From: an uncultured Kofleriaceae bacterium
GTDB lineage: Bacteria; Myxococcota_A; Polyangia; GCA-2747355; CAZCFB01
DNA length: 64,000 nucleotides
NCBI GenBank assembly: GCA_964497805.1
Contig: CAZCFB010000007.1
Coordinates: forward strand, 11,849 to 75,848
Direction of reading: 5' to 3'
A model generated the notes under the pieces. That model had not been told where the DNA came from. It worked only from the letters and a program-made list of their open reading frames with translations, and did not search any database. Both the position numbers and the translations under genes were made by a program. Positions 8,167 to 41,943 of this stretch are shown piece after piece (within the stretch, counting starts at the first letter, position 1; each line of letters begins with the position of its first letter).

Positions 8167-8282
8167 GGGGAGAGTTCGGTCCGGAGTTTGCCCGATACTA
8201 CCTCATCTAATTCAAGAAATCCAAAAGGAGATCTCTCTGATTTCGGCTGTTTGGATGGATTTCTGCGGGCCCGGCCGGCTGG

Positions 8283-8714
8283 CTAGATGCCGCGTCTGCC
8301 GAAGGATGGTGGAGGGGGGCCGTCGTCCCGTTCCTGGCGCTCTTGCTCCTCCCGGGACTCCTTGCAGTGGATGCAGAGTGAGGTGACAGGCCGGGCCATG
8401 AGCCGCTTGTAGCCGATCTCCTCCCCGCAATCCTCGCATTCGCCGATCTCCCCCTCCTCCAGGCGAATCAGCGCCTTACGCACCTTGGAGAGCAGCTTCA
8501 TCTCCCGGTCACGCAGGCGCAGGTCGGTTGAGAGCAGCCACTCTGTCACCGACAGGTCGATGGAGTCGCGCCCCGTGTCCGCCTCCCGGTCCATGCTCAT
8601 GCGCAGGCTGCTCTCGGCGTTTGCCATGAGCTGCTCGGCTGCCTCGCCCAGGCGGGTGCGGATCTGCTCGATCTGTTCAGGAGTGAGTTCAGCTGGGCCG
8701 GTTGGCTCGCTCAT
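8283..8714 (-). CDS. DksA/TraR-family C4 zinc-finger protein
   Basis: 143 aa. A coiled-coil-like N-terminal part is followed by 'CEDCGEEIGYKRLMARPVTSLCIHC' (CxxC-N17-CxxC). Its ATG overlaps the clpX stop (ATGA at 8711-8714). Confidence 0.8.
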   Translation of the reverse strand: MSEPTGPAELTPEQIEQIRTRLGEAAEQLMANAESSLRMSMDREADTGRDSIDLSVTEWLLSTDLRLRDREMKLLSKVRKALIRLEEGEIGECEDCGEEIGYKRLMARPVTSLCIHCKESREEQERQERDDGPPPPSFGRRGI

Positions 8715-9916
8715 GACGCCTTCTTTTCGCGGATCAGCTTGGGCCTGCTCCGATCAACAATGGTGGGCTCGTCGATGACGCACTCCACGATGCCTTCAAG
8801 GGAGGGGAGCTCGTACATCACGTCGAGCATCACCTCTTCGATGATGGAGCGCAGGCCGCGCGCGCCTGACTTGCGGCGGTACGCCTCTTCAGCCACGGCG
8901 CGCATTGCCTCCGGGGTGACCCGCAGCCGCACCCCCTCCATCTCGAACAGGCGCTGGTACTGACGCACCAGCGCGTTCTTGGGCTTCCACAGGATCTTGG
9001 TCAGCGAATCCACGTCCAGGTCGTCACAAGAAACCACGATGGGGATGCGCCCCACGAACTCGGGGATCATGCCGTACTTGATCAGGTCCTCGTGCTGCAC
9101 CTTGGCCCGCAGGGCGTTCTTGTCCTCGAGGTTGCGGTCCACGGTGGCGCCGAACCCGAGCCCCTTCTCCCCCACCCGGTTGCGCACCTGATCCTCCACG
9201 CCGGTGAAGCTGCCGGTGCAGATGAAGAGGATGTTGGTGGTGTCCACCTGGATCAGCTCTTGCTGGGGGCGGTTCCTGGAGCCGTCGGGGGTGATGGTCG
9301 CCTTGCGCCCCTCCAGCATCTTGAGCAGGGCCTGCTGCACGCCCTCGCCGGACACGTCCCGGCTCACCGAGGGGCCGCCAGCGCGGCGGGCGATCTTGTC
9401 CACCTCGTCAAGGCAGACGATGCCGTGGGAGGCCCGCTCCACGTCGCCGTCAGCCGCGCGGTACAGGGACTTGATGATGCTCTCGACGTCCTCGCCCACG
9501 TAGCCGGCCTCGGTGATGGTTGGGGGGTCGGCCATGGTGAACGGCACGTCGAGAATGCGGGCCAGGGTCTGGGCCAGCAGGGTCTTGCCGCAGCCCGAGG
9601 GGCCGAGCAGAAGGATGTTCCCCTTGGCCAACTCAACGTCCCCCGGCTTGCCCTTGTAGGAGATCCGCTTGTAGTGGTTGTAGACGGCCACAGCGAGGGC
9701 GCGCTTGGCGCCGTCCTGGCCGATTACGTAGCGGTCAAGCTCGTCAAGGATTTCCTGGGGGCGGGGGTACTGACGGTGGGCTGGGCTCTCGTCCTGCTCG
9801 ATGATCTCATTGCACAGGGCAACGCACTCGTCGCACACGTATACATTTGGCCCGCTGATCAGCTTGCGAACCTCGGAGCGGCGTTTACCGCAGAATGAGC
9901 AACGAATATCGTCCAC
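8711..9916 (-). CDS. clpX: ATP-dependent Clp protease ATP-binding subunit ClpX
   Basis: N-terminal zinc-binding domain '[11 protein letters not shown]...[11 protein letters not shown]', Walker A '[18 protein letters not shown]', '[11 protein letters not shown]', Walker B 'IVCLDEVDK', an LGF(IGF)-type loop 'GLGFGA', and '[10 protein letters not shown]'. No clpP gene is adjacent. Confidence 0.92.
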
Positions 9917-21914: not shown

Positions 21915-22565
21915 ATGACCCCAATAAGGAAGGCAACAGTCAGCCTGGCTCTGTTGACGCTGTTGGCATCGCCGACGGAGGTCAGCGCGCAACCGAAAGA
22001 CAAGGCGGGCAAGAAGGCCGCGGCGGCCAAGAAGGCGCCCGCAAAAAAGGCTGGCAAGGAAGCCAAGAAGGCGGGCAAGGAAGCCAAGAAGGCGGCCAAG
22101 GATGAGGCCAAGGCGGACAAGGCGGCGGCCAAGGATGAGGCCAAGGCGGACAAGGCGGCGGCCAAGGATGAGGCCAAGGGAGCCAAGCCGGCGGCCAAGG
22201 ATGAGGTGGTCCATGTCCATGTCCACCCAAAGAACATCTCCGACAAGAAGAAAGCAGACGGCAGGCACAAGATGCTGGCGCCGAAGATGGATAGCCTCAT
22301 CGCCGCCCGGCGGGAAACCCGGGACGTACGCCAGAAGGCTGCGGTCAAGGCGCTCACGGACAAGTACGGCGTCAAGGTCAGGCGCCCGGCCGTTCACAAG
22401 GAGCTCCGCAAGATTGCCTGGCTTGAGGCCCGGCTGGAGCGGATAAGAGAGATCTATGTGTTGGCGGAGGAAAAGTGGCTGGTCAAAGAGGTCGACAAGG
22501 CGGCCAGGACCCTTGCCGAGGTCAAGGCAATGAGGCTCAAGGCTGTCATTGGAGGTAAGAAATGA
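21915..22565 (+). CDS. Secreted Lys/Ala-repeat protein with a conserved basic C-terminal domain (cassette 1, gene A)
   Basis: Signal peptide 'VSLALLTLLASPTEVSA', 'AKKAGKEAKK' and 'AAKDEAKADKA' repeats, then 'KKKADGRHKML...ARLERIREI...EEKW'. Paralog of 23030-23683. Confidence 0.7.
   Translation: MTPIRKATVSLALLTLLASPTEVSAQPKDKAGKKAAAAKKAPAKKAGKEAKKAGKEAKKAAKDEAKADKAAAKDEAKADKAAAKDEAKGAKPAAKDEVVHVHVHPKNISDKKKADGRHKMLAPKMDSLIAARRETRDVRQKAAVKALTDKYGVKVRRPAVHKELRKIAWLEARLERIREIYVLAEEKWLVKEVDKAARTLAEVKAMRLKAVIGGKK
22092..22207 (+). repeat. In-frame 33-bp tandem repeat (3.5 units)
   Basis: 'gcggccaaggatgaggccaaggcggacaaggcg' at 22092-22124 and 22125-22157, a variant at 22158-22190, and a partial unit to 22207. 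It encodes 'AAKDEAKADKA'. A 21-bp 'ggcaaggaagccaagaaggcg' doublet lies just upstream. Confidence 0.9.
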
Positions 22566-22984
22566 ACCGCGCCCTGATTGTTGTCCTGGCCCTCCTGCTG
22601 GCGTTCTTTGGCCATGCAGGATGCAAGAACAAGAAGAAGACCGGCGAGGCCGCCAGCAAGACGGGCGTAGCTCACGCTGCCCCGGCCAAGGCGAAGGCCA
22701 AGCCGGAAGCAAAGGCCGCGGCCGCTGATGAGCCAGATGAAACTGAGGCCGGCGACCCGGAGGAGGCCACGGGCAAAGTGACCAAGGAGGCCACGCCAAC
22801 CGGGGCGTACGCCGCATCTTGCCAGAAGGAGCCCGAGACCAAGGACCACGCCGAAGATATCCCCACGTCCGTGGACTTCGAGGAGGAGGCGGCGGCGAAG
22901 ATCACCGCCCTCAACGTGGACGCCGAGTTGAAGCTCTTCATGGCCCATATCTATGATCTGAAATACCCAAACAAGAAGAAATAG
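22562..22984 (+). CDS. Lipoprotein with an acidic C-terminal domain (cassette 1, gene B)
   Basis: Lipobox 'FFGHAGC'. ATGA overlap with gene A. C-terminal 'TGAYAASCQKEPETKDH...VDFEEEAAAKITALNVDAELK' is paralogous to 23683-24090. Confidence 0.65.
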   Translation: MNRALIVVLALLLAFFGHAGCKNKKKTGEAASKTGVAHAAPAKAKAKPEAKAAAADEPDETEAGDPEEATGKVTKEATPTGAYAASCQKEPETKDHAEDIPTSVDFEEEAAAKITALNVDAELKLFMAHIYDLKYPNKKK

Positions 22985-23029
22985 CCGCCCTGAGGCGCTG
23001 ACGAGAGAGCTCAACGGGAGGAGGACAGG

Positions 23030-23683
23030 ATGAATATCTACATCAAGGCAACGGCCTGCCTGGCGCTTGTGGTGTTGTTGGCATTGCCAGCGGTGGCCTC
23101 GGCGCAGCCGGCAGACAAGCCCGCGGCGAAGAAGGCTGGCAAGGCCAAGAAGGTGCCGGCCGCCAAGAAGGCGCCGGCTGCCAAGAAGGCGCCAGCCGCC
23201 AAGAAGGCGCCAGCCGCCAAGAAGGCGCCAGCCGCCAAGGAGCCCGCGGCCAAGGAGCCGGCAACCAAGGAGCCGGCAACCAAGGAGGCTGCCGGTGGGA
23301 AGAAGGTCGATAAGACCAACCCGGCCCAGACTGGCAGCCACAAGAACCCCAAGTTAATTTCAGCGAAGAAGAAGGCTAACGGCCGGCACAAGATGATCAA
23401 GCAGAAGATGAATGACCTGCTCCTGGAAAAGCGGGCGACCCGCGAAGAGCGGCGGGGGAAGGTCCTCGACGTGCTGGAGAAGAAGTACGGCAAAAAGCTC
23501 CTGGTCCCGGCCGTACGTAAGGCCATGCGGAAGTTTTCCTGGAGGAGGGCGCGCCTGGAGAGGATCAGGGATATCGCCACCCTGTCCGAGGAGAAGTGGG
23601 CGCTGAAGATCGTGAACAGGCTCACCGGGGAGTTGGACAAACTGGAGACAAAGGCCCTCGCCGAACTCACAGGAGTCAAGTGA
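23030..23683 (+). CDS. Secreted Lys/Ala/Pro-repeat protein with a conserved basic C-terminal domain (cassette 2, gene A)
   Basis: Signal peptide 'CLALVVLLALPAVASA', four 'AAKKAP' units and four '(A/T)KEP' units, then 'KKKANGRHKMI...ARLERIRDI...EEKW'. This aligns with 21915-22565 along its whole length. Confidence 0.7.
   Translation: MNIYIKATACLALVVLLALPAVASAQPADKPAAKKAGKAKKVPAAKKAPAAKKAPAAKKAPAAKKAPAAKEPAAKEPATKEPATKEAAGGKKVDKTNPAQTGSHKNPKLISAKKKANGRHKMIKQKMNDLLLEKRATREERRGKVLDVLEKKYGKKLLVPAVRKAMRKFSWRRARLERIRDIATLSEEKWALKIVNRLTGELDKLETKALAELTGVK
23159..23290 (+). repeat. In-frame 18-bp (x4) then 15-bp (x4) tandem repeats
   Basis: 'gccgccaagaaggcgcc(g/a)' units at 23159, 23177, 23195 and 23213. 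These are followed by 15-bp 'gc(n)(g/a)ccaaggagcc(n)' units from 23231 to 23290. Confidence 0.9.
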
Positions 23684-30383: not shown

Positions 30384-33041
30384 ATGGTACTTCGACCATT
30401 AATCGCGCTGGTTCTGGCCTCTTTGGCCGGGGCCTGCACCATCGACGGCCCCAACGTGGACATCGACGGCAAGGACGTGGAGGCGATCTTCATCCACACC
30501 TCCGACATCCACTCCCGGCTGATCCCGTACAACATGGACCTGCTCCTGACGGACCAGAAGCTCGGTATGGAGCAGAAGTACGGACCCTTCGGCGGCGTGG
30601 CCCGGCTGTCAGCCCTGCTCAAGCAGGAGCGTCGCAACCACCCGCGCGTGGCGTACATCGACACCGGCGACGTGTTCCAGGGGGCCCCGGTCTTCAACGA
30701 GTTCGGCGGCGACATCGAGTTCAAGGCGATGACCCAGAACAGGGTGGACGCCTTCACCATCGGCAACCACGAGTTTGACAGCGGCGCCCACCATTTCGTA
30801 CGCAAGGCGGTGGAGTTCGCCCACTTCGCCATGCTCGGCGGCAACTACTCTCTGCAAGACTGGAACCGGGCAGGCATCACCCCCAACGGCCGTGTGGCCC
30901 AGCCGTACACCATCATCAACATGAAGGGCCTACGGGTGGGCATCATCGGCCTGGCCTCCATGGGCGGCAGCTACGGCGCCAACCTCAAGGGCCTGGTCAG
31001 GCTGAACAACATCGAGGTGGCCCAGAAGTACGTGGACTTCCTGCGCCCCATCGTCGACCTGGTGGTGATTACCTCCCACGTGGGCTACCACGATGACCGC
31101 GAGATCATCTCCCGCACCGAGGGGGTCGACCTCTACTTCGGCGGTCACCTGCACATCGCCCTGAACCCGCCCGAGGTGGTCAAGGACTGCGACGTGGTCA
31201 AGCTGGAGCGGGAGCGGGACCTGTATATCTGCGACACCCCCGCCAAGCTCTCGGCCTCCGCCGCGGTGTGCGAGGGGAACGCGGAGTGCGACAAGCTCAC
31301 CGGCGCGGACCAGACCAAGTGCAAGCAGAAGTGCGCGGCCAAGGCCAGGACCGACTGCGCCACCGAGGCCAAGGAGCGCCACTACAAGGAGAAGCTGGCC
31401 GAGCTGGACCAGAGCATCGCCTTCCTGAAGCGGCGCAAGTGCCGCCCCCGGGATGTGCCCCTGGTGCACTCCGGCGCCTTCCTCAAGTACATCGGCAAGC
31501 TGGAGGTGACCCTGCGCCAGTGCAACCGGCTGGGCGGGGCGGACTTCTGCCTGCTCAAGGACACCACCACCGGCAAGTGCGTGCCAGGCTACGAGCGGCG
31601 GCGCACCTGCCGCGGGAGCATCACCGGGGCCAACGACTGGGAGGTGCTGGCCCACAAGTACACCCTCGTTCCGGTGGACAGCCGCCTGCCCAGTGACCCG
31701 CAGATGCTTGCCCTGCTGGAGCCGTACACCCTCAAGCTCAACCGCAACCAGCGGCTCACCGAGGTCATCGGGTTCGCGTCCGAGCGGGTGCACCGCTTCG
31801 CCAGCTTCGGCGTGGTCACGCCCGACGGCCAGACCGCGCGCGCCGGCGGCGCCAACAAGGGGGACTCGCCCCTGGGCAACCTGGTCTGCGACTCCATGGG
31901 CAACCGGGCCCAGGTGTGGGCCGACTTTGCGGTGACCAACTCCCTGGGCATGCGCTCGGACATCATCCCCGGGCCGCTGGACGTGGAGCAGATGAATAAC
32001 GTCTTCCCCTTCGAGAACTCCATCACCGTCATGTACCTGTCCGGCTTCGAGGTGCAGGAGATGATGGACTTCATCTCCCAGCGGTCGGCAAGCCGCGGTT
32101 GCCAGCCCCAGGCCCAGGTTTCGGGCATCACTGCCACCCTCAACTGCAAGGGGTGCGACGCCAAGGGGGGCAACTCCTGCGTGAGGAGCACCTACGACGG
32201 CCAGCCGTGCGCCCAGAAGGTGACCATTGGCGGGTCCGGGCGCCCCTGCTCCACGGACGCGGACTGCAAGCTGAACGCGGGCCGGGCCACCGGCGAGATC
32301 TGCTCCACCCTGGACCACCCCGACAAGGTGAGCCAGGCGGGTAAGTCGCAGTGCCGCCTTCCGCTGGTCTGCAACCGGGTCTACCGCCTGGCCACCAACG
32401 ACTACGTAGCCCACGGGGGCAGCGGCTTCGCGGTGCTGGCGCGCAACACGACCCAGAAGAACCTGAAGATCCCCCTGCGCGACTCGGCCACCGACTTCAT
32501 CGTCAACATGCCGGGCTGCGCCTCCATCCCCCAGACCTACAAGCAGAAGGTTGATGGCAAGCCCATCAAGAACGTGATCACCGAGGTGCTCGAGCCGCTG
32601 CTCCCCTCGATCAAGCCGGCGGGCCAGCCCGCCAGCGGGGGCGACTGGCTCAAGCAGATGGAGGCAGCCGCCACCTCGGGCGACTGGAAGGGGGCCAACA
32701 CGGCCATGTCCCAGTTCGTGACCGCGCTCAAGGGCGCCAAGAACGCCATCAAGAGCAAGACCGACGCCACGCGCAAGGGGCTCATCAACTACCTGGCCTG
32801 CATCGACGAGGCCCCCAACGCCAAGACCAGCAAGTGCCTGGGCCTTACCTGCCAGCAGAAGCGCCTCTGCACCACCTACAAGGTCGCGGACAGGGGCAAG
32901 TGTGAGGCCCTGGCCCGTGTGCGGAGCGCGATGACCTGTATCAACCTGCCCTGCATCACGGCGGAGCAGGAGGGCCGGATCAACCTGATCAAGAACGACG
33001 GGGCCGGGACCGCTGACCCGAGCGACCCGTTCCCAGAGTGA
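30384..33041 (+). CDS. Lipoprotein: bifunctional metallophosphatase / 5'-nucleotidase with Cys-rich insertions and a C-terminal extension
   Basis: Lipobox 'LAGAC'. Metallophosphatase motifs 'HTSDIHSRL', 'DTGDVFQG', 'GNHEFD', 'TSHVGYHDD' and 'GGHLH'. 5'-nucleotidase C-domain 'NSLGMRSDI...VFPFENSI...GFEVQEMMDF...NDYVAHGGSGF'. At 885 aa it is much longer than typical UshA/NT5 enzymes. Confidence 0.85.
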   Translation: MVLRPLIALVLASLAGACTIDGPNVDIDGKDVEAIFIHTSDIHSRLIPYNMDLLLTDQKLGMEQKYGPFGGVARLSALLKQERRNHPRVAYIDTGDVFQGAPVFNEFGGDIEFKAMTQNRVDAFTIGNHEFDSGAHHFVRKAVEFAHFAMLGGNYSLQDWNRAGITPNGRVAQPYTIINMKGLRVGIIGLASMGGSYGANLKGLVRLNNIEVAQKYVDFLRPIVDLVVITSHVGYHDDREIISRTEGVDLYFGGHLHIALNPPEVVKDCDVVKLERERDLYICDTPAKLSASAAVCEGNAECDKLTGADQTKCKQKCAAKARTDCATEAKERHYKEKLAELDQSIAFLKRRKCRPRDVPLVHSGAFLKYIGKLEVTLRQCNRLGGADFCLLKDTTTGKCVPGYERRRTCRGSITGANDWEVLAHKYTLVPVDSRLPSDPQMLALLEPYTLKLNRNQRLTEVIGFASERVHRFASFGVVTPDGQTARAGGANKGDSPLGNLVCDSMGNRAQVWADFAVTNSLGMRSDIIPGPLDVEQMNNVFPFENSITVMYLSGFEVQEMMDFISQRSASRGCQPQAQVSGITATLNCKGCDAKGGNSCVRSTYDGQPCAQKVTIGGSGRPCSTDADCKLNAGRATGEICSTLDHPDKVSQAGKSQCRLPLVCNRVYRLATNDYVAHGGSGFAVLARNTTQKNLKIPLRDSATDFIVNMPGCASIPQTYKQKVDGKPIKNVITEVLEPLLPSIKPAGQPASGGDWLKQMEAAATSGDWKGANTAMSQFVTALKGAKNAIKSKTDATRKGLINYLACIDEAPNAKTSKCLGLTCQQKRLCTTYKVADRGKCEALARVRSAMTCINLPCITAEQEGRINLIKNDGAGTADPSDPFPE

Positions 33042-33058
33042 TCGGCGTGAGGACGACA

Positions 33059-34609
33059 ATGAAAAGCCTACACACCATCTCCTTGATCCTGGCCGTCGCC
33101 GCCGCTGGTTGCGGTGAGGCCGAGGATTACAACCCGGCCGCGGGCGCCTTCAAGGTGACCTGGACCGCCGGCAGCCCGCCTCCAACAAACTCCGCGGCCA
33201 ACCCGCGGGCCTTCTCCGCCACGGAGGAGACCTTCACCGTGGACATCCAGGCCCTGCGCCACGACAGGGCGGGCCAGGTGAGCACCGACGGGTACAACGG
33301 CTACGTGATGCTCAAGGCCATGCCCACGGGCAAGCTGAACCGGGATCCCTTTACCGTGGAGCTCAAGAACGGCAAGGCCACCGGCATCAAGGTGGGCCTG
33401 AGCCTGGCCTATGGCCATGTGCGGCTGGTGGCCGTGGACCCGGGCTACAAGGAGGCCAAGGTGCTGGCCGACGCCGCCTGTAACAACGGCAAGGACGACG
33501 ACGGCGACGGCTACATCGACTCCGAGGACCGGGGCTGCCTGGTGGGCGGCGACGACAGCGAGGAGGGCGGCACCGGCGCGGCGGGCGCGTCCCCCACCAT
33601 CTACTACGCCAACCCGCGCCTGTACGACATCCAGAACCCGGCGGTCCCTGGCGCCGTGGGCGACGAGTCGCCCCTCAACGGCCAGCGGGTCACCGTGGAC
33701 AAGGGCTGGCTCCTGGTGACGAACCTCTCCTCGGACGGTCTGTACGTCACCGACTTCGAGGGGGCCAAGTGGAACGCCACATCCAAGGTATGGAAGATCG
33801 CCGCCCAGGACCTCTCCTACGACCACATGTTCGCCTTCAACTTCAACGTGCCCCTTAACCTGCAGGTGGGCGACTGCCTGGTGGAACTGGACGGCAAGGT
33901 GGAGGAGTTCTTCGGCTACACCGAGATGGGCTTCCCCAACTGGAAGAAGGGGGACAACAAGTTCTGCTATGCCAAGGCAAAGGCCGGGGGCATGGCCGCC
34001 TGCCCCACGGACGGCACCTACAACAAGGATTGCTGGGACGCCATCAAGAAGCTGGCCAGCACCCCGGTGGACCTGTCCAAGCCCGTGGACATCACCGACA
34101 AGAACGGCACCACCAAGGTGTGGCCCTTCAAGGACCTGACCACCACCGAGCGGTGGGAGGCGGGCCTGGTGCAGGTGTCCAACGTGAAGCTCTTCTCCAA
34201 GGCCAGGATCTGCGATCGAAACGGCAACGGCGAGATCGACTTCAACGATCCCAACGACCCCTCGGGCGCGGAGAAGAACTGCGCCAACGGGTGCGGCGAC
34301 GACGAGACCTGCATCGTCAACGAGCAGTTCCAGGAGTACAGCCAGTGGTCGGTGAACTTCAAGGCGTCCCTGGGCGGCGTGGACTACAAGCAGGAGGTGT
34401 CCGTGACCTCGGGTGGCTCCATCCCCAACTGGAACGCCATGAAGGGGTGTGACTTCAAGAAATCCTCCGACGGCCTGAGCTGCACCCGGGCCACTGACAA
34501 GACCCTGACCAAGGTGCTGGGCACCATGCGCTCGTTCCGTTACGGCCGGCCGCCCTGGATCATCCAGACCCGCTCCCCGGCCGACTGCCCTGACTGCGTC
34601 AACAAGTAG
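33059..34609 (+). CDS. Lipoprotein with a MopE-type Cys/Asp metal-binding motif
   Basis: The ATG at 33059 (SD 'GAGGA') gives 'MKSLHTISLILAVAAAGC'. 'CNNGKDDDGDGYIDSEDRGC' matches the putative metal-binding (MopE/thrombospondin-type-3-like) motif common in myxobacteria. The rest is not recognised. Confidence 0.6.
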   Translation: MKSLHTISLILAVAAAGCGEAEDYNPAAGAFKVTWTAGSPPPTNSAANPRAFSATEETFTVDIQALRHDRAGQVSTDGYNGYVMLKAMPTGKLNRDPFTVELKNGKATGIKVGLSLAYGHVRLVAVDPGYKEAKVLADAACNNGKDDDGDGYIDSEDRGCLVGGDDSEEGGTGAAGASPTIYYANPRLYDIQNPAVPGAVGDESPLNGQRVTVDKGWLLVTNLSSDGLYVTDFEGAKWNATSKVWKIAAQDLSYDHMFAFNFNVPLNLQVGDCLVELDGKVEEFFGYTEMGFPNWKKGDNKFCYAKAKAGGMAACPTDGTYNKDCWDAIKKLASTPVDLSKPVDITDKNGTTKVWPFKDLTTTERWEAGLVQVSNVKLFSKARICDRNGNGEIDFNDPNDPSGAEKNCANGCGDDETCIVNEQFQEYSQWSVNFKASLGGVDYKQEVSVTSGGSIPNWNAMKGCDFKKSSDGLSCTRATDKTLTKVLGTMRSFRYGRPPWIIQTRSPADCPDCVNK

Positions 34610-34618
34610 AGAACTCAA

Positions 34619-36226
34619 ATGATGAGATCGGATAAGGACATGACCCCCAAACGTACCGCCCCAATCACGACTACCCTGGCCGCCCTGGCGGCGCTGATGC
34701 TCTACGCGTCCCCGGCCGTTGCCAACGACTGGATCGACACCCGCATCACCTACACCATCGGTGATGACAACTTCCTCAAGGACGCCGGCGAGCAGGTGCC
34801 AGACTCCCCCCTGCTCAGCGTGGGCGACCGGGACGGCTACCAGCTCCCCTTCGACAACCTGGACCTGGCCTCAACCGGGCGCGAGAACGAGCTGCACCTG
34901 GTGCTCTACAAGAAGGTGACCGGGATCCTGCCCGGGCTGATAACCGAGGCCGCGGCCGCCCTTGAGCTGGACCTCGAGGCCCTGGCAAAGGAGGAGAGCA
35001 TAGGCCGGGTGCTCAAGGACGACTCCTCCTACATCCGCATCGCCTACGCCCTGGACGAGCTGCGCAAGGGGTCCGAGTACATCGACATCGTGCTCTTCCC
35101 CCTGGACGGCGACCGGTTCCGCGCGGGCTACCTCTACGACCTCACCTGGGGCGGCTCTGATATGTTCCCCGGCAAGAAGGGCCCCTCACCGGCGTTCAAG
35201 ATCGGCGGCAACCACGGCTTCATGTACTGGTGGGCCGGCATGAAGATGGTGCAGGGCGAGCTCCCCACCAAGTACGACAAGAGCGTGAGCGGCACCGAGC
35301 ACTCGGTCACCGAGCACGAGACCCTGTACAGCGGCCTGGCGGGCCTGGGCTTCCAGCCCATCGACGGGTTGAGCATCGACGTGAGCGGCGGCTACGTGCA
35401 GCAGGCCCACAACCAGCTGCGCGACATCGCGGCCACCACCGTGGACGCGGCGGGCGGCTCGGCGCGGCTCGCCTACGGCCGGGGCCTCAAGGTGGGCCTC
35501 TCCTCGGACCTGAAGCTGCTGCGTAATGACCGTGAGTTCCTGGAGAACCTCTCCCGCCGGCCCACCTACAAGACCGACGACAGCGTGAACTGGCGCGTGG
35601 CGGCGGAGGGCAACGTCATCGCCCAGACCCTTGCCGATCCGGACAAGGCCGGCTCCACCACGGTGCAGCTCGCCTCGGCCGCGGCCCTGGACTTCCGCCT
35701 GCAGCGCAACTACCTGCGCCTCAACGCCACCGTGGTGTACCGCAGCCTGGAGTTCAACCTGATGAACAAGCCGGGCCTGCCCACGTACGTGGCCTTCTCC
35801 GACGATCAGATCATCCAGCCCCAGATCTTCGGCGCTGTTTCGCTGGACTACCACTTCCCCAAGCTCTGGCTCACCCCGGGGATCCAGGCCGGCGTGGAGA
35901 TGCCGCCCGCAATGAAGACCGAGCTCTACTCCACCGACGCGGGAAGCACCCCCTCCACCAACCTGATCGGAACCTACACTGTGATCGTGGGCAGCGACGG
36001 GGAGTACCGGATCTTGCCCGAGGACGAGGACCGCGTGCCAGTCTACTCGGTGCGCCTCAACGCGCGCTGGTACCCGTCGGACATGCTCACCATTTTGGCC
36101 TTCTTCCTGTTCGAGTACGACCACAACGCGGCTGTGCTTGATTTCGCGGCCGACCAGACCAAAACCCGGACCTTCGACGAGCCGGTGCGCATCGGCGCGG
36201 GCATCACGGCGCAGGCGCGGTTCTAA
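34619..36226 (+). CDS. Probable outer-membrane beta-barrel protein
   Basis: Signal peptide 'LAALAALMLYASPAVA'. Alternating beta-strand-like pattern throughout, and a C-terminal 'GAGITAQARF' ending in Phe, which is an OMP-type beta-signal. Confidence 0.55.
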   Translation: MMRSDKDMTPKRTAPITTTLAALAALMLYASPAVANDWIDTRITYTIGDDNFLKDAGEQVPDSPLLSVGDRDGYQLPFDNLDLASTGRENELHLVLYKKVTGILPGLITEAAAALELDLEALAKEESIGRVLKDDSSYIRIAYALDELRKGSEYIDIVLFPLDGDRFRAGYLYDLTWGGSDMFPGKKGPSPAFKIGGNHGFMYWWAGMKMVQGELPTKYDKSVSGTEHSVTEHETLYSGLAGLGFQPIDGLSIDVSGGYVQQAHNQLRDIAATTVDAAGGSARLAYGRGLKVGLSSDLKLLRNDREFLENLSRRPTYKTDDSVNWRVAAEGNVIAQTLADPDKAGSTTVQLASAAALDFRLQRNYLRLNATVVYRSLEFNLMNKPGLPTYVAFSDDQIIQPQIFGAVSLDYHFPKLWLTPGIQAGVEMPPAMKTELYSTDAGSTPSTNLIGTYTVIVGSDGEYRILPEDEDRVPVYSVRLNARWYPSDMLTILAFFLFEYDHNAAVLDFAADQTKTRTFDEPVRIGAGITAQARF

Positions 36227-36227
36227 G

Positions 36228-37169
36228 ATGAGCGCGGCAAGCGACGTCCTCGCCCTGGACCTGGGGGGCTCAAAGCTGGCCCTGGCCACGGTGAGCCGCA
36301 CGGGGGACCTGACCCGGCACGAGCGCAAGCCAACGGCGGAGGTGCCGGACGGGGATGCTCTCGTGGCGTGGGTGGCGGAGCAGACCACGGCCTGGGGCAT
36401 GGAGCCCCTGGGGCTGGGCATCAGCGCCGGCGGCCCCCTGGACGATGTGGAGGGATGCATCACCTCCTGGCCCCGCATGGAGCACCTTTGGGCATACCCC
36501 CTGGGCGAGAAGCTCAAGGCGGCCATCCCCTCGCTCGCCTCGGTGAAGCTGGTCAACGACGCCAACGCGGCGTGCGCGGGGGAGGCGGTGTTCGGCGCGG
36601 CGCGGGGGCTGAAGCGCGCCATCTACATCACGGTCTCCACCGGCGTGGGGGGCGGCGCGGTGGTGGGGGGGCTGCTGCTGCGCGGGGAGCGGGGCAACGC
36701 CGCCGAGTTTGGCCACATGATCGTGGATCCCAACGGCCCCATGTGTGATTGCGGCCAGCAGGGCTGCCTGGAGGCGGTCTCCTCTGGCTCGGGGCTCTTC
36801 CGCCGGGCGGTGGAGGCGGGCATGGTGGACCCAGAGGAGATGGGCTGGGCCGAGATGGGCTACTGGCTGGCCGAGCGCCTGGAGCAGGGGGACGCCGGCG
36901 CCGAGGGGCTGTGGGAGCGGGCCCTGGACGGCCTGGCCGTGGGCATCACCAACCTGTACAACGCCTTCGTGCCCCAGGCCATCGTGCTGGGCGGCGGGCT
37001 GTGTGGGCTGGTTCAGCAGGACGAGGAGCGGCTGCGGGCCCTGCTGGAGAAGCGGGCTCGGCTCATGCCCCTGCCCCAGGGGGTGGTGCGCTTCTCCCTG
37101 AACCGGGACACGATCCCCCTGCTGGGCGTGGCGGCAGTGGCCGGAGGGTGGATTGGTCAGGAAGCGTAG
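36228..37169 (+). CDS. ROK-family sugar kinase (glucokinase / N-acetylhexosamine kinase type)
   Basis: The ATG at 36228 lies 1 nt after the preceding stop. 'VLALDLGGSKLALA', 'NDANAACAGE', 'ITVSTGVGGG', the ROK zinc motif 'CDCGQQGCLEAVSSG' and 'IVLGGG'. I reject the track ORF's 30-codon Arg-rich extension. Confidence 0.85.
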   Translation: MSAASDVLALDLGGSKLALATVSRTGDLTRHERKPTAEVPDGDALVAWVAEQTTAWGMEPLGLGISAGGPLDDVEGCITSWPRMEHLWAYPLGEKLKAAIPSLASVKLVNDANAACAGEAVFGAARGLKRAIYITVSTGVGGGAVVGGLLLRGERGNAAEFGHMIVDPNGPMCDCGQQGCLEAVSSGSGLFRRAVEAGMVDPEEMGWAEMGYWLAERLEQGDAGAEGLWERALDGLAVGITNLYNAFVPQAIVLGGGLCGLVQQDEERLRALLEKRARLMPLPQGVVRFSLNRDTIPLLGVAAVAGGWIGQEA

Positions 37170-37201
37170 GGTAGACTCGGGGCCTGAATTGGAGGCGTAG
37201 C

Positions 37202-37477
37202 GTGTACCTCGGAAGAGTCATGGGCACGGTGGTTGCCGAGAAGAAGATCGAGGGGACAGAGGGCTTCAAGTTCCTCATTGTCCAGCCCCTGGATCACAAC
37301 GAACAACCCACCGGCGACCCCATCGTGGCCGCGGACACGGTCCGGGCCGGCCCCGGCGAGCTGGTCTACCTGACCCACGCGCGGGAGGCGGCCCAGGCGT
37401 GCGAGCCCTGGTTCGTGCCGGTGGACGCCGCCATCATCGGCATCGTGGACAGCGTGGACACGGACGACGAATCATGA
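37202..37477 (+). CDS. Bacterial microcompartment vertex protein, BMC-P (EutN/CcmL family), paralog 1
   Basis: 'MYLGRVMGTVVAEKK..EGTEGFKFLIVQPLD....GDPIVAADTVRAGPGELVYL....PVDAAIIGIVDSV' fits the PF03319 pattern. 91 aa, GTG start with a 'GGAGG' SD. Confidence 0.85.
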   Translation: MYLGRVMGTVVAEKKIEGTEGFKFLIVQPLDHNEQPTGDPIVAADTVRAGPGELVYLTHAREAAQACEPWFVPVDAAIIGIVDSVDTDDES

Positions 37478-37743
37478 AGATCTGTCGCGTACTCGGCACC
37501 GTCACCTCCACCGCCAAGCAGCCGGTCTACGAGGGCCAGAAGCTCATGGTGGTGCAGCCCCTCAACGCGGACCTGGAGAACGAGGGGCACTCCTACCTGG
37601 CCGTGGACCGGGTGCAGGCAGGGGTGGGCGACCTGGTCATGGTCAACTCCGAGGGGAACGCGGCCCGCTCCCTGTTCAACCGCGAGGTCATCTGCATCCG
37701 CTCCCTGATCACAGGCATCATCGATGAGGTGGACGTCCCGTGA
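37474..37743 (+). CDS. Bacterial microcompartment vertex protein, BMC-P (EutN/CcmL family), paralog 2
   Basis: The internal ATG at 37474 (ATGA overlap) gives 'MKICRVLGTVTSTAKQPVYEGQKLMVVQPLN....YLAVDRVQAGVGDLVMV...RSLITGIIDEVD'. 89 aa, PF03319 pattern. Confidence 0.85.
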   Translation: MKICRVLGTVTSTAKQPVYEGQKLMVVQPLNADLENEGHSYLAVDRVQAGVGDLVMVNSEGNAARSLFNREVICIRSLITGIIDEVDVP

Positions 37744-38498
37744 GGCGAATGAGCGAGGCTGATCAGCGCCGGGAGCTCCACCACTACAGCGTGCGCCTCT
37801 GGGAGAGGGGGTGGGTGGCCAACCACGACGGGAACCTGTCGGCGCGGCTCCCCCGGGCGCGCCTCATGTGCACGCCCACGGCCATGTCCAAGGCGGACAT
37901 CGAGGCCGACATGATGCTGGTGCTGGATGACACCGGCAAGAAGCTGCAGGGGGAGCGCAAGCCCTTCTCCGAGATCAACCTGCACCTGGCCTGGTACCAC
38001 GCCCGCCCCGACGTGGGGGCGGTGATCCACGCCCACCCGGTCACCGCCACCGCCCTGGGCGTGTCGGGCAAGTCCCTGGACAGGCCCTTTTTGCCAGAGG
38101 CCGTGGTGAGCCTGGGGCCCATCATCCCCACTGTGCCCATGGCCATGCCGGGGCAGGAGGCGGTGCAGGCGGCCGCGCCCTACCTGGACGAGTACGACGC
38201 CCTGATCCTGGCGGGCAACGGGGTGATCACCTGTGGCCCCGACCTGGAGCTGGCCTACCTGCGCATGGAGCTGGTGGAGCACCTGGCGCGCATCTACGTG
38301 GAGGCCACCAGGGTGGGCGGCCCGGATCCGCTGCCGCCCCGCTTCCTGCAGCCCCTGCTGGCGGCCAGGGCAAAGGCGGGCCTGGGCCCCGAGGCCAGGG
38401 GCGGGCAGACCACCCGGCCCACTGATGCCCCCGCCGGCGCGGAAGGCGATCTGGCGACCATCATCAAGTCGGAGATCGGCAAGATCCTCGGCGGGTAG
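37740..38498 (+). CDS. Class II aldolase/adducin-family protein with a C-terminal linker and amphipathic helix
   Basis: 'LWERGWVANHDGNLSARL', 'FSEINLHLAWY' (catalytic Glu region) and 'VIHAHPVTATAL' (two Zn-ligand His). Either GTG at 37740 overlaps the BMC-P stop (GTGA) or the ATG at 37749 is the start. The tail is 'GLGPEARGGQTTRPTDAPAGAEG-DLATIIKSEIGKILGG'. Confidence 0.85.
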   Translation: MRRMSEADQRRELHHYSVRLWERGWVANHDGNLSARLPRARLMCTPTAMSKADIEADMMLVLDDTGKKLQGERKPFSEINLHLAWYHARPDVGAVIHAHPVTATALGVSGKSLDRPFLPEAVVSLGPIIPTVPMAMPGQEAVQAAAPYLDEYDALILAGNGVITCGPDLELAYLRMELVEHLARIYVEATRVGGPDPLPPRFLQPLLAARAKAGLGPEARGGQTTRPTDAPAGAEGDLATIIKSEIGKILGG

Positions 38499-38505
38499 CT
38501 TTTCA

Positions 38506-39633
38506 ATGAGAAATGCCTTCATCGCGCTGCTGGTCCTTGTCACGGCATGCGGCGAGGAGGATCCGTCCGGCCAGGCGCCGGATCCCATCAAGGAGATCGT
38601 CGCCGGGGTGGTGAAGCCGTACGTGGATCCGGCCGCGGCGCTCACCGACGCGAGCAAGACCGTGGGCCTGGTGGTGGCGGCCCTGGGCGAGGCAGGGGAG
38701 GGGACCTACGGCTTCGGGGAGACCAGCGCGGGCAGCGGGGTCATCCCCGACGGGGACACCGTCTTCCAGATAGGTTCGGTGAGCAAGGCGCTCACCGGGT
38801 TGATCCTGGCCCAGCAGGTGGCGGAGGGCGGGCTCGCTCGGAGCGCGCTGGTGGAGGCGCTGTTGCCGGCCCTGGCTGGATCCAACGGCACGAAGAAGGT
38901 CACCCTCGGCATGCTCGCCGCCCACCACTCGGGCCTGGAGAGCATGCCCACCAACCTGCCCAAGAATGACCCCATCAGCCCGGCCACTGGCTACACCCTT
39001 GCCGCGCTCAAGACCTACCTCTTCGGGCTCGCCGCCCCCGTGGCCGCGGGGAAGGCGTACAAGTACTCCAACCTCGGCATCGGCCTGCTCGGCCTCGGGC
39101 TTGAGAAGCAGCTCAAGGTGACGGGGTACAACGCGCTCCTGGTCGCCACCCTGAGAAAGGAGCTGGGGATAACGGACCTGTGGGGGCAGGTAAACAAGCT
39201 GCCCGCTCTGGCCATGTCACGCCTGGCCCAGGGGTACGCCAACAAGGGGACCGCCCGGGTGGCAGGACACCCCGGGCAAATGGGGGTGCTGGCCGGCGCC
39301 GGCGAGGCGCTGACCACGGGCAAGATCGCGCTGCTCTTGCTGGAGACCTTCACCGGCCAGCGCGCCGGGGCCCTGGACGCGGCCGTTGCCGAGTGGGTCA
39401 AGCCCATCAAGCCCATGACCGGGGGAGACAGCATCGCCTACGCCCTGGAGGTCCAGCCCGACGGAGGCGGCCACATCTACAAGAAGGCAGGCAACACCGC
39501 GGGCGGCTACTCCGCCTACCTGGCCTTCCGCCGGGACAAGAAGGTGGGCGTGTTCGTCATGGCCAACGTTGCCTCGTTCAAGGGCGTCAAGACCATGGCC
39601 CTGACCATCCTGGAGAAGCTGGCGGCTCAGTGA
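38506..39633 (+). CDS. Lipoprotein, beta-lactamase-related serine hydrolase (class C / PBP4*-like fold)
   Basis: The ATG at 38506 gives 'MRNAFIALLVLVTAC'. SxxK 'FQIGSVSKALTG', YxN 'YKYSNLG' and a KTG-like 'YKKAGNTAGG'. I reject the track ORF's 91-codon extension, which overlaps the aldolase. Confidence 0.8.
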   Translation: MRNAFIALLVLVTACGEEDPSGQAPDPIKEIVAGVVKPYVDPAAALTDASKTVGLVVAALGEAGEGTYGFGETSAGSGVIPDGDTVFQIGSVSKALTGLILAQQVAEGGLARSALVEALLPALAGSNGTKKVTLGMLAAHHSGLESMPTNLPKNDPISPATGYTLAALKTYLFGLAAPVAAGKAYKYSNLGIGLLGLGLEKQLKVTGYNALLVATLRKELGITDLWGQVNKLPALAMSRLAQGYANKGTARVAGHPGQMGVLAGAGEALTTGKIALLLLETFTGQRAGALDAAVAEWVKPIKPMTGGDSIAYALEVQPDGGGHIYKKAGNTAGGYSAYLAFRRDKKVGVFVMANVASFKGVKTMALTILEKLAAQ

Positions 39634-40072
39634 ACCGACTGGTCCTGGGGTGACATGTCCGGCTTAGGGTTGCAGACCGCGCAGCCAGAGAACTTGTAGC
39701 GCGGCCGGGTACAGCCAGTGACCGGGTCGGTGTCCTCGGACTTACAGCTGAAGTGCACGTGGCACCAGTTGAAGGTTTTCGGGCGTTCCTTGCAGCCCCA
39801 CTTGAAGTGGAGGCATCCGCAGTGGTTCGTGGTCCAGCCGGTCCAGGCCGACACTACGATGCAGGTGCAGGGCAGGTCGGGGCCTCGGCGGTCGGGCGGC
39901 CACAGGTCCGGAGGCAGGTCCGGGGGGGGGTGAACAAGTCGGGCAGCGTGGACTGGTCGGAGGGGGCGTCGCTGATGGTCAGGTCGGTGGGGGGCGAGCT
40001 CTCGTCGTCGCCGGGGCAGGAAAACAGCGCAATGGCCAGCGGAACAATCCAGATCAAGTTGGCTCGTCTCAT
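39627..40072 (-). pseudogene. Small Cys-rich lipoprotein gene interrupted by a frameshift at a C9 (plus-strand G9) homopolymer
   Basis: The ATG at 40072 (SD 'GGAGAGGGAGGG') gives 'MRRANLIWIVPLAIALFSC...STLPDLFTPP'. That frame stops at 39854. The Cys-rich C-terminal part ('PPPDLPPDLWPPD...CTCIVVSAWTGWTTNHCGCLHFKWGC...') is in the adjacent frame of ORF 39627-40331. One extra C in the run would join the two frames seamlessly. Confidence 0.6.
39922..39930. repeat. G9/C9 homopolymer at the frameshift site
   Basis: Read directly: 'gtccggggggggggtgaac' contains nine consecutive G at 39922-39930. Confidence 0.95.
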
Positions 40073-40112
40073 GGTCCCTCCCTCTCCATGATATGTGCAG
40101 CCAGGGGGCTCG

Positions 40113-40916
40113 ATGGTCCCGGGTGCTAAAATGACGGCTCCCATGTTGCGATCCGTCCTTGCCGTCTTCTCCACGCTGGTGTTGGCCGCCTGCTCGGAGC
40201 AGTCTGCGAGACCTGCTGCGGACGGAGCGCCACAGCCGGACCTCACCATCTCCACACCCGACCAGGCGCCGCCGGTTGATCAGCGGCCGGCCGTGGACCG
40301 GGGCAGGCGCTTTTGCGCCCCACACCTGCACTACTGCGACGGCCCCAATCTATTGAAGTGCTCCCATGACGGCCACGATTTCCTGTTGGTTCGGAGCTGC
40401 AGCGCCAGATGGGGGCTGTCCTCACCGCGTTGTGTGCTCTGCCCGGGCGGCGGCGCGGGGTGCGGGCCTGGCGTCGGGCCGGCGCGGGTGGTCATGACCG
40501 GCCTGGCCAGCTTTGACCTCACCTACCTCCCCGAGTGCGACAAGACCGCCACCTACACCACCACCGGCGGGGGCGGCAAGACGGGTTACATGATGACCTT
40601 CACCTTCAAGTACAAGGGCTTCACCTTCAAGCACACGCTGTATGTCGGCATGGGGAGCAGCAGCGAGATGCTCTCCTTCACAGATGCCACCCGGAGCCTC
40701 TCCTGCGATGTGAGTATCAACAATGCCGGTACCGGATCGCCACCCGGCAAGCTGTACGCCAAGTACTGGAAGGACAGTGACTACAACATCAGCCGCCACC
40801 CCAGACGCTACAGGGGATACGACTACATCAAGTCCCATGGATACATGACCTGCGACAAGGGGAGCACCTGGAAGAAGTTCACCTTCTCGGCGAAGCTGCC
40901 TGGACCGATGTATTAG
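40113..40916 (+). CDS. Hypothetical Cys-containing lipoprotein
   Basis: The ATG at 40113 (SD 'AGGGGG') gives 'MVPGAKMTAPMLRSVLAVFSTLVLAAC'. Alternative starts are at 40095 and 40131. The mature N-terminus 'PDLTISTPDQAPP' resembles that of the divergent frameshifted lipoprotein. The C-terminal half is Tyr/Lys/Thr-rich and beta-like, with locally lower GC. Confidence 0.5.
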   Translation: MVPGAKMTAPMLRSVLAVFSTLVLAACSEQSARPAADGAPQPDLTISTPDQAPPVDQRPAVDRGRRFCAPHLHYCDGPNLLKCSHDGHDFLLVRSCSARWGLSSPRCVLCPGGGAGCGPGVGPARVVMTGLASFDLTYLPECDKTATYTTTGGGGKTGYMMTFTFKYKGFTFKHTLYVGMGSSSEMLSFTDATRSLSCDVSINNAGTGSPPGKLYAKYWKDSDYNISRHPRRYRGYDYIKSHGYMTCDKGSTWKKFTFSAKLPGPMY

Positions 40917-41943
40917 CGTCCCCTTTGCCCATGGCGGTCAGCAGGGCGGGAAAGATGGCGTCGGCGAGCATCTTGTGCCCACGGTTGTTCGGGTGGATCG
41001 GGAGGCGCCTGGGATTGGCGCGCCAATTTTTTAGCTCCCGGCTGTAGTGGATCTCCTCGGCGCCCGCCCAGAGGTCGGAGAGATCAACCGGCGTGATGCC
41101 CTCCTCCTCCAGCAGGGCCTTCATCAGGGCCAGCTCTTCCGCCCACCAGCTGCAGGGGGTATTTTCCGCCGGCGGAACGGCGCACATGGAGTCGCCGGTG
41201 GGTTTGACCAGGACCACCACCAGAGGGACGCCCGCCTTCTTGGCGTGCTCACGCATGGCCCGGGCGTAGGTCTTGAACTGCTCGCGTCCCTCGGGGGTGA
41301 TGTATCGCCGCGCGCCCGGTTCATCGCTTGAACTCAGGGCGTACCAGGCGAAGTTCGCCAGGTAGCTGTTGGAGGCCCACCAGCGCAACAGGGGGCGGCG
41401 GATCCGCTCGGGCAGCAGCACCAGGCTGTCGTCCTTGCGGTAGGCGATGCGCCACTCCAGGTCGTCTGCGAACACCTGAAAGAGGGCGATATCCGGCGGC
41501 CGCCCGTCCTGCAACCAGGTGATGAACCGGGGCATGGAGATACACATATTCGCCCCGTTGCGCGCGACATTCTCCAGGTGTACTGGACGGCCGAGGTGTT
41601 CTCCCAGGCGCCTGGCCAGCAGCGCCGCGAAGCCGCGCCCGCCGGTGGAGCCGATACCGTCAGCCACCGAGTCGCCGCCAACCAGGAACCGCAGGGCGCC
41701 GGGCGGAGGAGTCGGGGTTCCGCGGGGCCGGCCGCCGCGCCGGATCTCGTCAAGGGGAGGGCAAGGCGGGATCCCCCCCCCGGGGGTGAGAAGGGGGAGC
41801 GTGGATTCCGGGCCGTCTCCGTCTTCTGCAAGGGCGGCCTTGCTGGGCAGGTCCGGGTAGAACACCCTCATCGCGGCCTCGATGAAGAGCAGAGTGAAGA
41901 GCATGGAGCAGACGACCAGGAGCCCCTTGCGGCCCCAACTCAT
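40879..41943 (-). CDS. SGNH/GDSL-family hydrolase with an N-terminal TM anchor
   Basis: The internal ATG at 41943 (ATGA overlap with the helicase stop) gives 'MSWGRKGLLVVCSMLFTLLFIEAAM'. Block I 'FLVGGDSVADGIG', plus a C-terminal 'HPNNRGHKMLA' (DxxH-like block V region). Confidence 0.7.
   Translation of the reverse strand: MSWGRKGLLVVCSMLFTLLFIEAAMRVFYPDLPSKAALAEDGDGPESTLPLLTPGGGIPPCPPLDEIRRGGRPRGTPTPPPGALRFLVGGDSVADGIGSTGGRGFAALLARRLGEHLGRPVHLENVARNGANMCISMPRFITWLQDGRPPDIALFQVFADDLEWRIAYRKDDSLVLLPERIRRPLLRWWASNSYLANFAWYALSSSDEPGARRYITPEGREQFKTYARAMREHAKKAGVPLVVVLVKPTGDSMCAVPPAENTPCSWWAEELALMKALLEEEGITPVDLSDLWAGAEEIHYSRELKNWRANPRRLPIHPNNRGHKMLADAIFPALLTAMGKGDANTSVQAASPRR

Follow-up and report, generated by a model that had tools for sequence, protein, structure and literature searches.

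A hexamer-free locus of two BMC-P genes and a class II aldolase gene, very probably a satellite of a Haliangium ochraceum-type microcompartment in an uncultured Myxococcota bacterium

Bacterial microcompartments of the Haliangium ochraceum type (HO) were catalogued by Sutter, Melnicki, Schulz, Woyke and Kerfeld (Sutter et al. 2021, Nat Commun, PMC8217296), who list 41 loci, 30 of them type I, including that of H. ochraceum, and 11 type II. The main loci of type I encode shell proteins and an aldehyde dehydrogenase only. For 24 of the type I loci, a PF00596 aldolase is encoded on a satellite, a type I satellite with two BMC-P genes and the aldolase is described explicitly, and in type II the same unit is fused into the main locus (PMC8217296). 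By definition of the catalogue, all catalogued type I genomes with a satellite have a main locus. The function of the HO organelle is called enigmatic in the same work, which proposes a role with nucleic-acid sugars by analogy to the sugar-phosphate utilisation (SPU) microcompartments: the HO aldehyde dehydrogenase (AldDH) is closest to the enzymes of SPU5 and SPU7, both of which have been proposed to serve the catabolism of nucleic-acid sugars (PMC8217296). The SPU microcompartments have a DeoC-type PF01791 aldolase and RpiB, whereas the aldolase considered here belongs to PF00596.

In this article, we compare with these systems a locus of three adjacent genes, two for BMC-P proteins (P1 and P2) and one for an aldolase, within a 64-kb stretch of DNA (the whole of which we call the window). 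The locus shares with the HO type I satellite the BMC-P pair, the PF00596 aldolase with a C-terminal extension and the myxobacterial host, and it shows no difference in kind, the copy in the window coming from an uncultured lineage. We conclude from the analysis below that it is very probably a type I satellite of an HO-type microcompartment in an uncultured Myxococcota bacterium. A preliminary description had presented the locus as a new puzzle, which it is not, the type I satellite having been catalogued already in 2021 (PMC8217296); because Sutter et al. 2021 describe exactly such a satellite, the locus is an ordinary further example rather than a new system. The other main point of that description, namely a shell-gene locus that lacks hexamer genes and is linked to the H. 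ochraceum-type organelle, is borne out, the three genes being orthologous to the BMC-P/BMC-P/aldolase unit of HO loci. The features of the locus and its surroundings are collected in Table 1.

Table 1. Coordinates of the features discussed, in positions of the window
Feature	Coordinates	Strand	Remarks
Gene run, genes 1-3	30384-39633		UshA-like metallophosphoesterase/5'-nucleotidase with lipoprotein signal; 523-aa lipoprotein; 535-aa protein ending in Phe
Gene run, genes 4-8	30384-39633		ROK kinase; P1; P2; aldolase; beta-lactamase-fold lipoprotein
Shine-Dalgarno-like GGAGG	37191..37195	+	6 nt 5' of the P1 GTG; read from sequence
BMC-P paralogue 1 ("P1" class)	37202..37477	+	91 aa, GTG start, predicted vertex pentamer subunit
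BMC-P paralogue 2 ("P2" class)	37474..37743	+	89 aa, ATG start, overlaps the P1 stop
Class II aldolase/adducin-family enzyme	37740..38498	+	252 aa (GTG 37740) or 249 aa (ATG 37749); predicted lumen cargo
AAC codon, Asn160	38217..38219	+	aligns with His155 of E. coli FucA, its third zinc ligand
Linker, poorly conserved, low-confidence	38385..38438	+	residues about 216-233; length and sequence vary in alignment
C-terminal amphipathic helix, predicted encapsulation peptide	38439..38486	+	residues 234-249, ends ...GDLATIIKSEIGKIL

The two small open reading frames had been read as EutN/CcmL proteins, and a significant profile match to PF03319 is indeed obtained for each. P1 matches PF03319 (EutN_CcmL) with E 5.5e-27 (94.5 bits) and P2 with E 1.5e-24 (86.8 bits), against a cut-off of 25 bits, and both proteins cover profile positions 1-83 of 83. 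The best PDB matches of both are pentameric BMC-P structures, including the H. ochraceum shell pentamer 5V74 (P1: 4i7a, E 9e-15, and the HO shell BMC-P 5v74, E 1e-13; P2: 4i7a, E 3e-10), and P1 and P2 are expected to be subunits of vertex pentamers, pentamer formation being a prediction from their sequences. Translated from its GTG start, P1 begins with MYLGRVMGTVV, the canonical BMC-P N-terminus, and PF03319, 4i7a and 5v74 all align with it from residue 1. The ATGA overlap reported between the two frames is present in the sequence, the stop of P1 and the start of P2 sharing positions 37474-37477.

The identification of the third gene as a class II aldolase likewise holds (PF00596, Aldolase_II, E 2.6e-40, 138.7 bits against a gathering cut-off of 22.2). 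A GTGA overlap with P2 had also been claimed for this gene: the GTG at 37740 does overlap the P2 TGA at 37741-37743, but the ATG at 37749 is an equally plausible start, since the equivalent M-[SN]-E begins most homologues and an identical aldolase protein has been called elsewhere at 249 aa. Translational coupling through GTGA is thus possible rather than certain, because the homologues, like one independent gene call, point to the ATG; the gap between P2 and the aldolase is at most 5 nt whichever start is used. The closest PDB entries are 6voq (named "Aldolase", E 1.6e-21) and the FucA entries (E 1e-19 to 1e-16). None of the NCBIfam equivalog models reaches its cut-off, the best score being that of 3-oxo-tetronate 4-phosphate decarboxylase (92.6 bits against 250), followed by ribulose-1-phosphate aldolase (88 against 300) and the FucA models (70-82 bits against cut-offs of 264-400, the 82 against 264). 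Because all these scores are far below the cut-offs, no characterised specificity can be assigned, and by its sequence the protein can be filed only at the level of the class II aldolase/adducin superfamily (PF00596).

The same reserve applies to the active site. The preliminary description had called the zinc and catalytic positions intact, which is correct for the Glu and the His-x-His motif: Glu78, His97 and His99 (in the 252-aa numbering) correspond to Glu73, His92 and His94 of FucA and are invariant in 121 homologues. It is not correct for the third His ligand, which is replaced by Asn160. The LAGNG segment of the window aldolase is aligned against LANHG in all five HMMER alignments to PDB aldolases, and a MAFFT alignment with FucA likewise puts Asn160 at His155. 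In comparison with E. coli FucA (PDB 1FUA), the PF00596 fold and the equivalents of Glu73, His92, His94 and Asn29 are kept, whereas His155 is changed to Asn, Tyr113 to Leu and Ser71 to Phe. Judged by sequence, the protein therefore lacks the full zinc site of the FucA/RhaD type (H92, H94, H155, E73). Since the third His and the equivalent of Tyr113 are missing and no curated specificity model is reached, we treat aldol cleavage as an assumption.

One alternative is that this is not a FucA-like zinc aldolase but a member of the aldolase family with another metal site and another reaction (a decarboxylase, epimerase or dehydratase), or a non-catalytic cargo or scaffold protein. We consider this unlikely, although not to the extent that it could be passed over. 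The Asn at FucA His155 and the Leu at Tyr113 speak for it, as do the similarity scores, which are best for the decarboxylase model and for the unnamed "Aldolase" of the PDB. Of 201 family members, 154 carry Asn and 47 carry His at the position of Asn160, and no covarying column that would provide a replacement ligand in the Asn-type proteins was found among them. Type II (main-locus) aldolases could be scored in six cases, all of them with the His, so the Asn appears to be the derived state; neighbour-joining and parsimony place His at the root with about 7 changes, which is a rough estimate. On the other hand, Glu78, His97, His99 and the Asn of the phosphate loop are invariant and Asn160 itself is kept in 154 sequences, a pattern that favours a functional active site. 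Moreover, divalent metals can be ligated by Asn, and apart from the ligand site the His- and Asn-bearing proteins are indistinguishable in the alignment, the only other difference being at the adjacent residue 159.

In the reading that we prefer, the protein is most likely a cargo of the shell lumen that would make an aldehyde for the dehydrogenase of the main locus. This view relies on the C-terminal tail. In the alignment of homologues the conserved aldolase core ends at about residue 215 and is followed by a variable linker and then by a C-terminal segment that is again conserved (xLxxxVRxEIxRVL) and reads GDLATIIKSEIGKIL in the window copy. The AlphaFold2 model (mean pLDDT 92.5) has high confidence up to about residue 220, the blocks that hold the linker (221-240) have mean pLDDT of 72 and 58, and DSSP assigns a helix to residues 234-249, whose hydrophobic residues lie on one face. 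C-terminal encapsulation peptides are known on class II aldolases of microcompartments (Aussignargues et al. 2015, PMC4594438), and the layout of such peptides, a terminal amphipathic helix of about 17 aa behind a poorly conserved linker, is found in this tail; the linker of about 18 aa is shorter than the published range of 23-81 aa (PMC4594438). The AldDH of the related loci carries an N-terminal helix that is similar in character. The aldolases of the Planctomycete/Verrucomicrobia-type (PVM) and GRM5 microcompartments combine the PF00596 fold with a C-terminal encapsulation peptide, as predicted for the window aldolase.

Apart from P1 and P2, the window appears to be free of shell genes. 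The earlier observation that it contains no PF00936-like frame is confirmed across all 828 six-frame ORFs: BMC-H of H. ochraceum (HO-5815, with a query sequence identical to PDB 5DJB), PduA and CcmK2 match nothing at E<=10, and tblastn of the BMC-H queries against the window gives chance matches only. Queries taken from related loci (BMC-H, BMC-T, BMC-Tdp, the BMC-P of the main locus and AldDH) retrieve only the two known BMC-P ORFs. Within the 64 kb there is consequently no detectable PF00936 hexamer or trimer gene, third BMC-P gene or acylating aldehyde dehydrogenase gene. When 29-42.5 kb was scanned for promoters and terminators, no signal exceeded the shuffled expectation.

The comparison with other genomes shows where such a trio of genes normally belongs. 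Homologues of the aldolase number 2,485 at E<=1e-20; a source name is given for few of them, and it is then Myxococcota, Myxococcales, Polyangia or Deltaproteobacteria. In a scan of one genome per species we obtained 539 relatives and analysed the best 80 of the 539 loci, which are mostly labelled Myxococcales, Polyangia, Bradymonadia, Myxococcota or Deltaproteobacteria. P1-like and P2-like genes precede the aldolase in the same order in 77 of these best 80. Flanks of 8 kb or more on both sides are available for 32 loci, and in 30 of these no BMC-H gene lies within reach. In seven of the 80 (L035, L046, L047, L057, L059, L068 and L072) the trio stands directly behind genes for BMC-H, BMC-P, AldDH and BMC-T, giving the order H-P-AldDH-T-P1-P2-ALD, with an AldDH of 469 aa and a tandem-domain BMC-T; the identities of the shell proteins and AldDH were verified with Pfam in L047. 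The BMC-H of related HO loci matches HO-5815 with E 1e-45, is about 80% identical to it and begins MADALGMIE.

Pairwise identities among the proteins of the window, the related loci and HO-5814, the solved shell pentamer of H. ochraceum, separate three distinct BMC-P classes. P1 shares 47-52% identity with the first paired BMC-P of the related HO loci and 34-41% with the class of the main locus, whereas P2 shares 40-47% with the second paired BMC-P; P1 and P2 are 36% identical to each other, each being closest to a different class in the related loci. HO-5814 is 57-60% identical to the BMC-P class that adjoins BMC-H in these loci and 44% identical to P1. The identities thus indicate that the window holds the two paired classes without the HO-5814-like class that travels with the hexamer gene. 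The synthetic H. ochraceum shell (HO-5815 as BMC-H, HO-5814 as BMC-P; PDB 5V74, 5DJB) shares its protein folds with the BMC-P proteins of the window, but its HO-5814 represents the main-locus class, which is absent here, while the window proteins represent the two paired classes.

The window locus therefore has the composition of an HO type I satellite, namely two PF03319 genes of distinct classes with a PF00596 gene directly downstream and no PF00936 gene in the 64 kb, and its three genes are orthologous to the P1-P2-aldolase unit of complete type II HO loci, which have an HO-like BMC-H and an AldDH with an N-terminal encapsulation peptide. The term satellite is applied to the host organism by analogy with these relatives.

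A satellite implies a main locus, and we looked for one in two ways, by look-ups of AldDH homologues and by a metagenome scan with a DNA pattern encoding MADALGMIE, which all 16 of the HO-type BMC-H genes already collected contained. The main loci sampled in this manner have the order Tdp-H-P-AldDH-T alone, or the same followed by P1-P2, or by P1-P2-aldolase. Many metagenomic HO main loci in the sample end after BMC-T, without the paired BMC-P genes; these are type I main loci, which would need a satellite with the paired BMC-P. Many others have the paired BMC-P without an aldolase, so that an aldolase is not a general feature of this class of organelle. The window lies on a metagenome scaffold of 82,561 bp (ENA ERZ23498639, scaffold_684), and an aldolase identical to that of the window is also present in ERZ23498660 as well as JGI metagenome 3300007510. 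Six clusters of AldDH homologues were looked up without finding the host main locus, none of them coming from ERZ23498639, ERZ23498660 or 3300007510, and no contig from metagenome 3300007510 is among the matches listed (at least 120) in the MADALGMIE scan. Cluster P0180, from another sample of the same study, was rejected as the host main locus: it carries its own paired BMC-P genes and so probably belongs to a different organism. We attribute the failure to find the locus to the source of the sequence, which is a metagenome scaffold. To judge by its relatives, the host in all likelihood has a main locus elsewhere in its genome.

The same observations bear on the alternative that the organism has no hexamer genes and that the EutN-fold pair and the aldolase act outside any microcompartment, for example as a scaffolded enzyme complex. 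The missing PF00936 gene in the 64 kb and the host main locus that was not recovered in the contig look-ups or the metagenome scan would both be expected in that case, and P1, P2 and the aldolase are kept together far more consistently than they are kept near shell genes. However, orthologous trios do occur inside complete HO loci, every published type I genome with a satellite has, by the catalogue's own definition, a main locus as well (PMC8217296), type I main loci without paired BMC-P genes are common in metagenomes, and the aldolase retains a tail of the shell-targeting kind. We regard such a free-standing module as highly improbable. An assignment of the locus not to HO but to PVM or one of the other aldolase-signature microcompartments (ACI, GRM5) is scarcely credible: such loci likewise encode a PF00596 aldolase carrying an encapsulation peptide at its C-terminus, and the BMC-P triplet is also found in ACI loci, but the closest genome loci (among the best 80 of 539) come from Myxococcota-type MAGs and, where shell genes are adjacent, these show the HO architecture, with an HO-5815-like BMC-H, an AldDH with an N-terminal encapsulation peptide and BMC-T.

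With the assignment to an HO-type satellite as the preferred reading, the neighbouring genes can be considered as a possible indication of the substrate. The preliminary description had gone further and taken them as the best available clue, which the comparison does not sustain, because only the trio is conserved. The trio lies in a run of eight co-directional genes with gaps of at most 32 nt, with the ROK kinase gene directly upstream and the gene of the beta-lactamase-fold lipoprotein directly downstream. The ROK kinase was rejected as a conserved partner of the module, being absent from all of the best 80 of 539 genome loci; only the lineage of the window and a relative with 82% aldolase identity have it. 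In this relative the gene order is that of the window up to the aldolase, which is directly followed by a UvrD helicase gene, and 38506-41943 of the window is consequently read as an insertion. The block of the nucleotidase-like, 523-aa and 535-aa proteins adjoins the trio in 7 of the 50 loci with enough flank, there in convergent orientation. It was rejected as a functional partner because it comes together with pyruvate kinase and other housekeeping neighbours, which makes synteny by descent with a local inversion the simpler reading. The 535-aa protein encoded upstream of the ROK kinase is a predicted outer-membrane protein. Since nothing beyond the trio is conserved enough, the neighbours provide at most a weak hint at the substrate.

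The working of the locus that we infer, from pentamer formation and encapsulation to the aldolase reaction with its substrate and the main locus in the host, would be as follows. The three genes, being coupled tightly or translationally, would be made together. P1 and P2 would be two of the three paralogues of the "BMC-P triplet", whose pentamers cap the vertices of the shell, and the linker and amphipathic helix of the aldolase would act as the encapsulation peptide that takes the enzyme into the shell lumen. There the aldolase would cleave a ketose phosphate to a triose phosphate and an aldehyde, and the aldehyde would be oxidised to an acyl-CoA by an encapsulated acylating AldDH, whose own gene would presumably accompany those of BMC-H, BMC-T and the third BMC-P in a main locus at another place in the genome.

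The HO shell serves as the principal model in structural and engineering work on bacterial microcompartments, and our results confirm the published picture of the HO loci with a larger sample of 80 species-level genomes (the best 80 of 539) and at least about 120 metagenome contigs. The aldolase of the window lineage is at most 60% identical to that of any species-representative genome and at most 82% identical to those of other metagenome contigs. No mention of Hoch_4425, Hoch_4426 or Hoch_4427 was found in the literature searched. Two of the observations are potentially useful to researchers working on HO function: in most satellite-encoded aldolases the third zinc-binding His has given way to Asn, and the gene neighbourhood beyond the trio is too poorly conserved to indicate the substrate. 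A more far-reaching proposal, which we consider improbable, is that the encapsulated "aldolase" of the window lineage has a remodelled active site, without the third His and the Tyr of FucA, and that the lineage-specific string of genes from the secreted nucleotidase to the aldolase marks a nucleotide- or sugar-derived feed into the organelle. If this were true, FucA-like cleavage would not be the signature reaction of many HO-type microcompartments, and the feed pathway would provide a first handle on the HO substrate.

In the aldolase encoded beside the two BMC-P genes, Asn occupies the position of a zinc ligand in the E. coli L-fuculose-1-phosphate aldolase FucA, as it also does in 154 of 201 family members, a set that includes the aldolases of 80 related genome loci. 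The ligand itself, His155 in FucA, is kept in all six scorable aldolases from type II loci, in which the trio of two BMC-P genes and the aldolase gene is fused into the main locus. No column compensating for the His-to-Asn replacement was found among the 201 family members, and at the position of FucA Tyr113 the window aldolase has Leu.

Main loci of the Haliangium ochraceum (HO) type, sampled by aldehyde dehydrogenase (AldDH) look-ups and a metagenome scan, occur in at least three arrangements, namely 1) Tdp-H-P-AldDH-T alone, 2) the same genes with paired BMC-P genes, and 3) the same genes with both the paired BMC-P genes and the aldolase. The second arrangement means that many organisms have paired BMC-P genes without an adjacent aldolase. 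The scan used a DNA pattern encoding MADALGMIE, which matched 16 of 16 HO-type BMC-H genes from loci already collected; the great majority of the matches listed in metagenome contigs fell inside loci with HO-type shell genes. At its N-terminus the HO-type AldDH carries an amphipathic helix, MLPREQVSEIVERVL, after which comes a linker rich in Pro and Ala; this helix is the counterpart of the one at the C-terminus of the aldolase.

Locations of the features discussed

Feature	Location	Remark
Three adjacent small genes (216, 140, 217 aa)	window 21915-23683	
Three-gene block adjoining trio	window 30384-36226	co-directional with trio
ROK-family sugar kinase (PF00480)	window 36228-37169	ends 32 nt upstream of first BMC-P gene
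AAC codon, Asn160 of aldolase	window 38217-38219 (+)	site of FucA third zinc ligand His155
Beta-lactamase-fold (class C/AmpH-like) lipoprotein gene	in window 38506-41943	starts 7 nt past aldolase stop
HO-type AldDH	L047 (type II locus) 7398-8807 and equivalents	

The top NCBIfam match of the ROK kinase is the N-acetylmannosamine kinase subfamily, with a score under the cut-off. This gene is limited to the window lineage and a relative with 82% aldolase identity, being absent from the 80 other genomes compared.

Downstream, the beta-lactamase-fold gene is followed by two small ORFs, a 267-aa protein without family match and a GDSL lipase. The whole segment is missing in the closest relative, where UvrD lies directly 3' of the aldolase, which marks it as a lineage-specific insertion.

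Elsewhere in the window, the three small genes sit in the lowest-G+C stretch (0.62), where A strongly outweighs T on the + strand (skew 0.39). Their products have signal-peptide-like N-termini, the 216-aa and 217-aa proteins being alike there, and none of the three has a Pfam match.

Of the three products of the upstream block, one is a UshA-like 5'-nucleotidase/metallophosphoesterase lipoprotein and another is a lipoprotein of 523 aa that bears an acidic double-disulfide repeat; the third, 535 aa long, is without family match and has Phe as its C-terminal residue. An equivalent block adjoins the trio in seven further species, where it is convergent. Because pyruvate kinase accompanies the block, its position beside the trio is likely inherited synteny. 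A less likely reading links the nucleotidase block to the proposed role of HO organelles in nucleic-acid catabolism.
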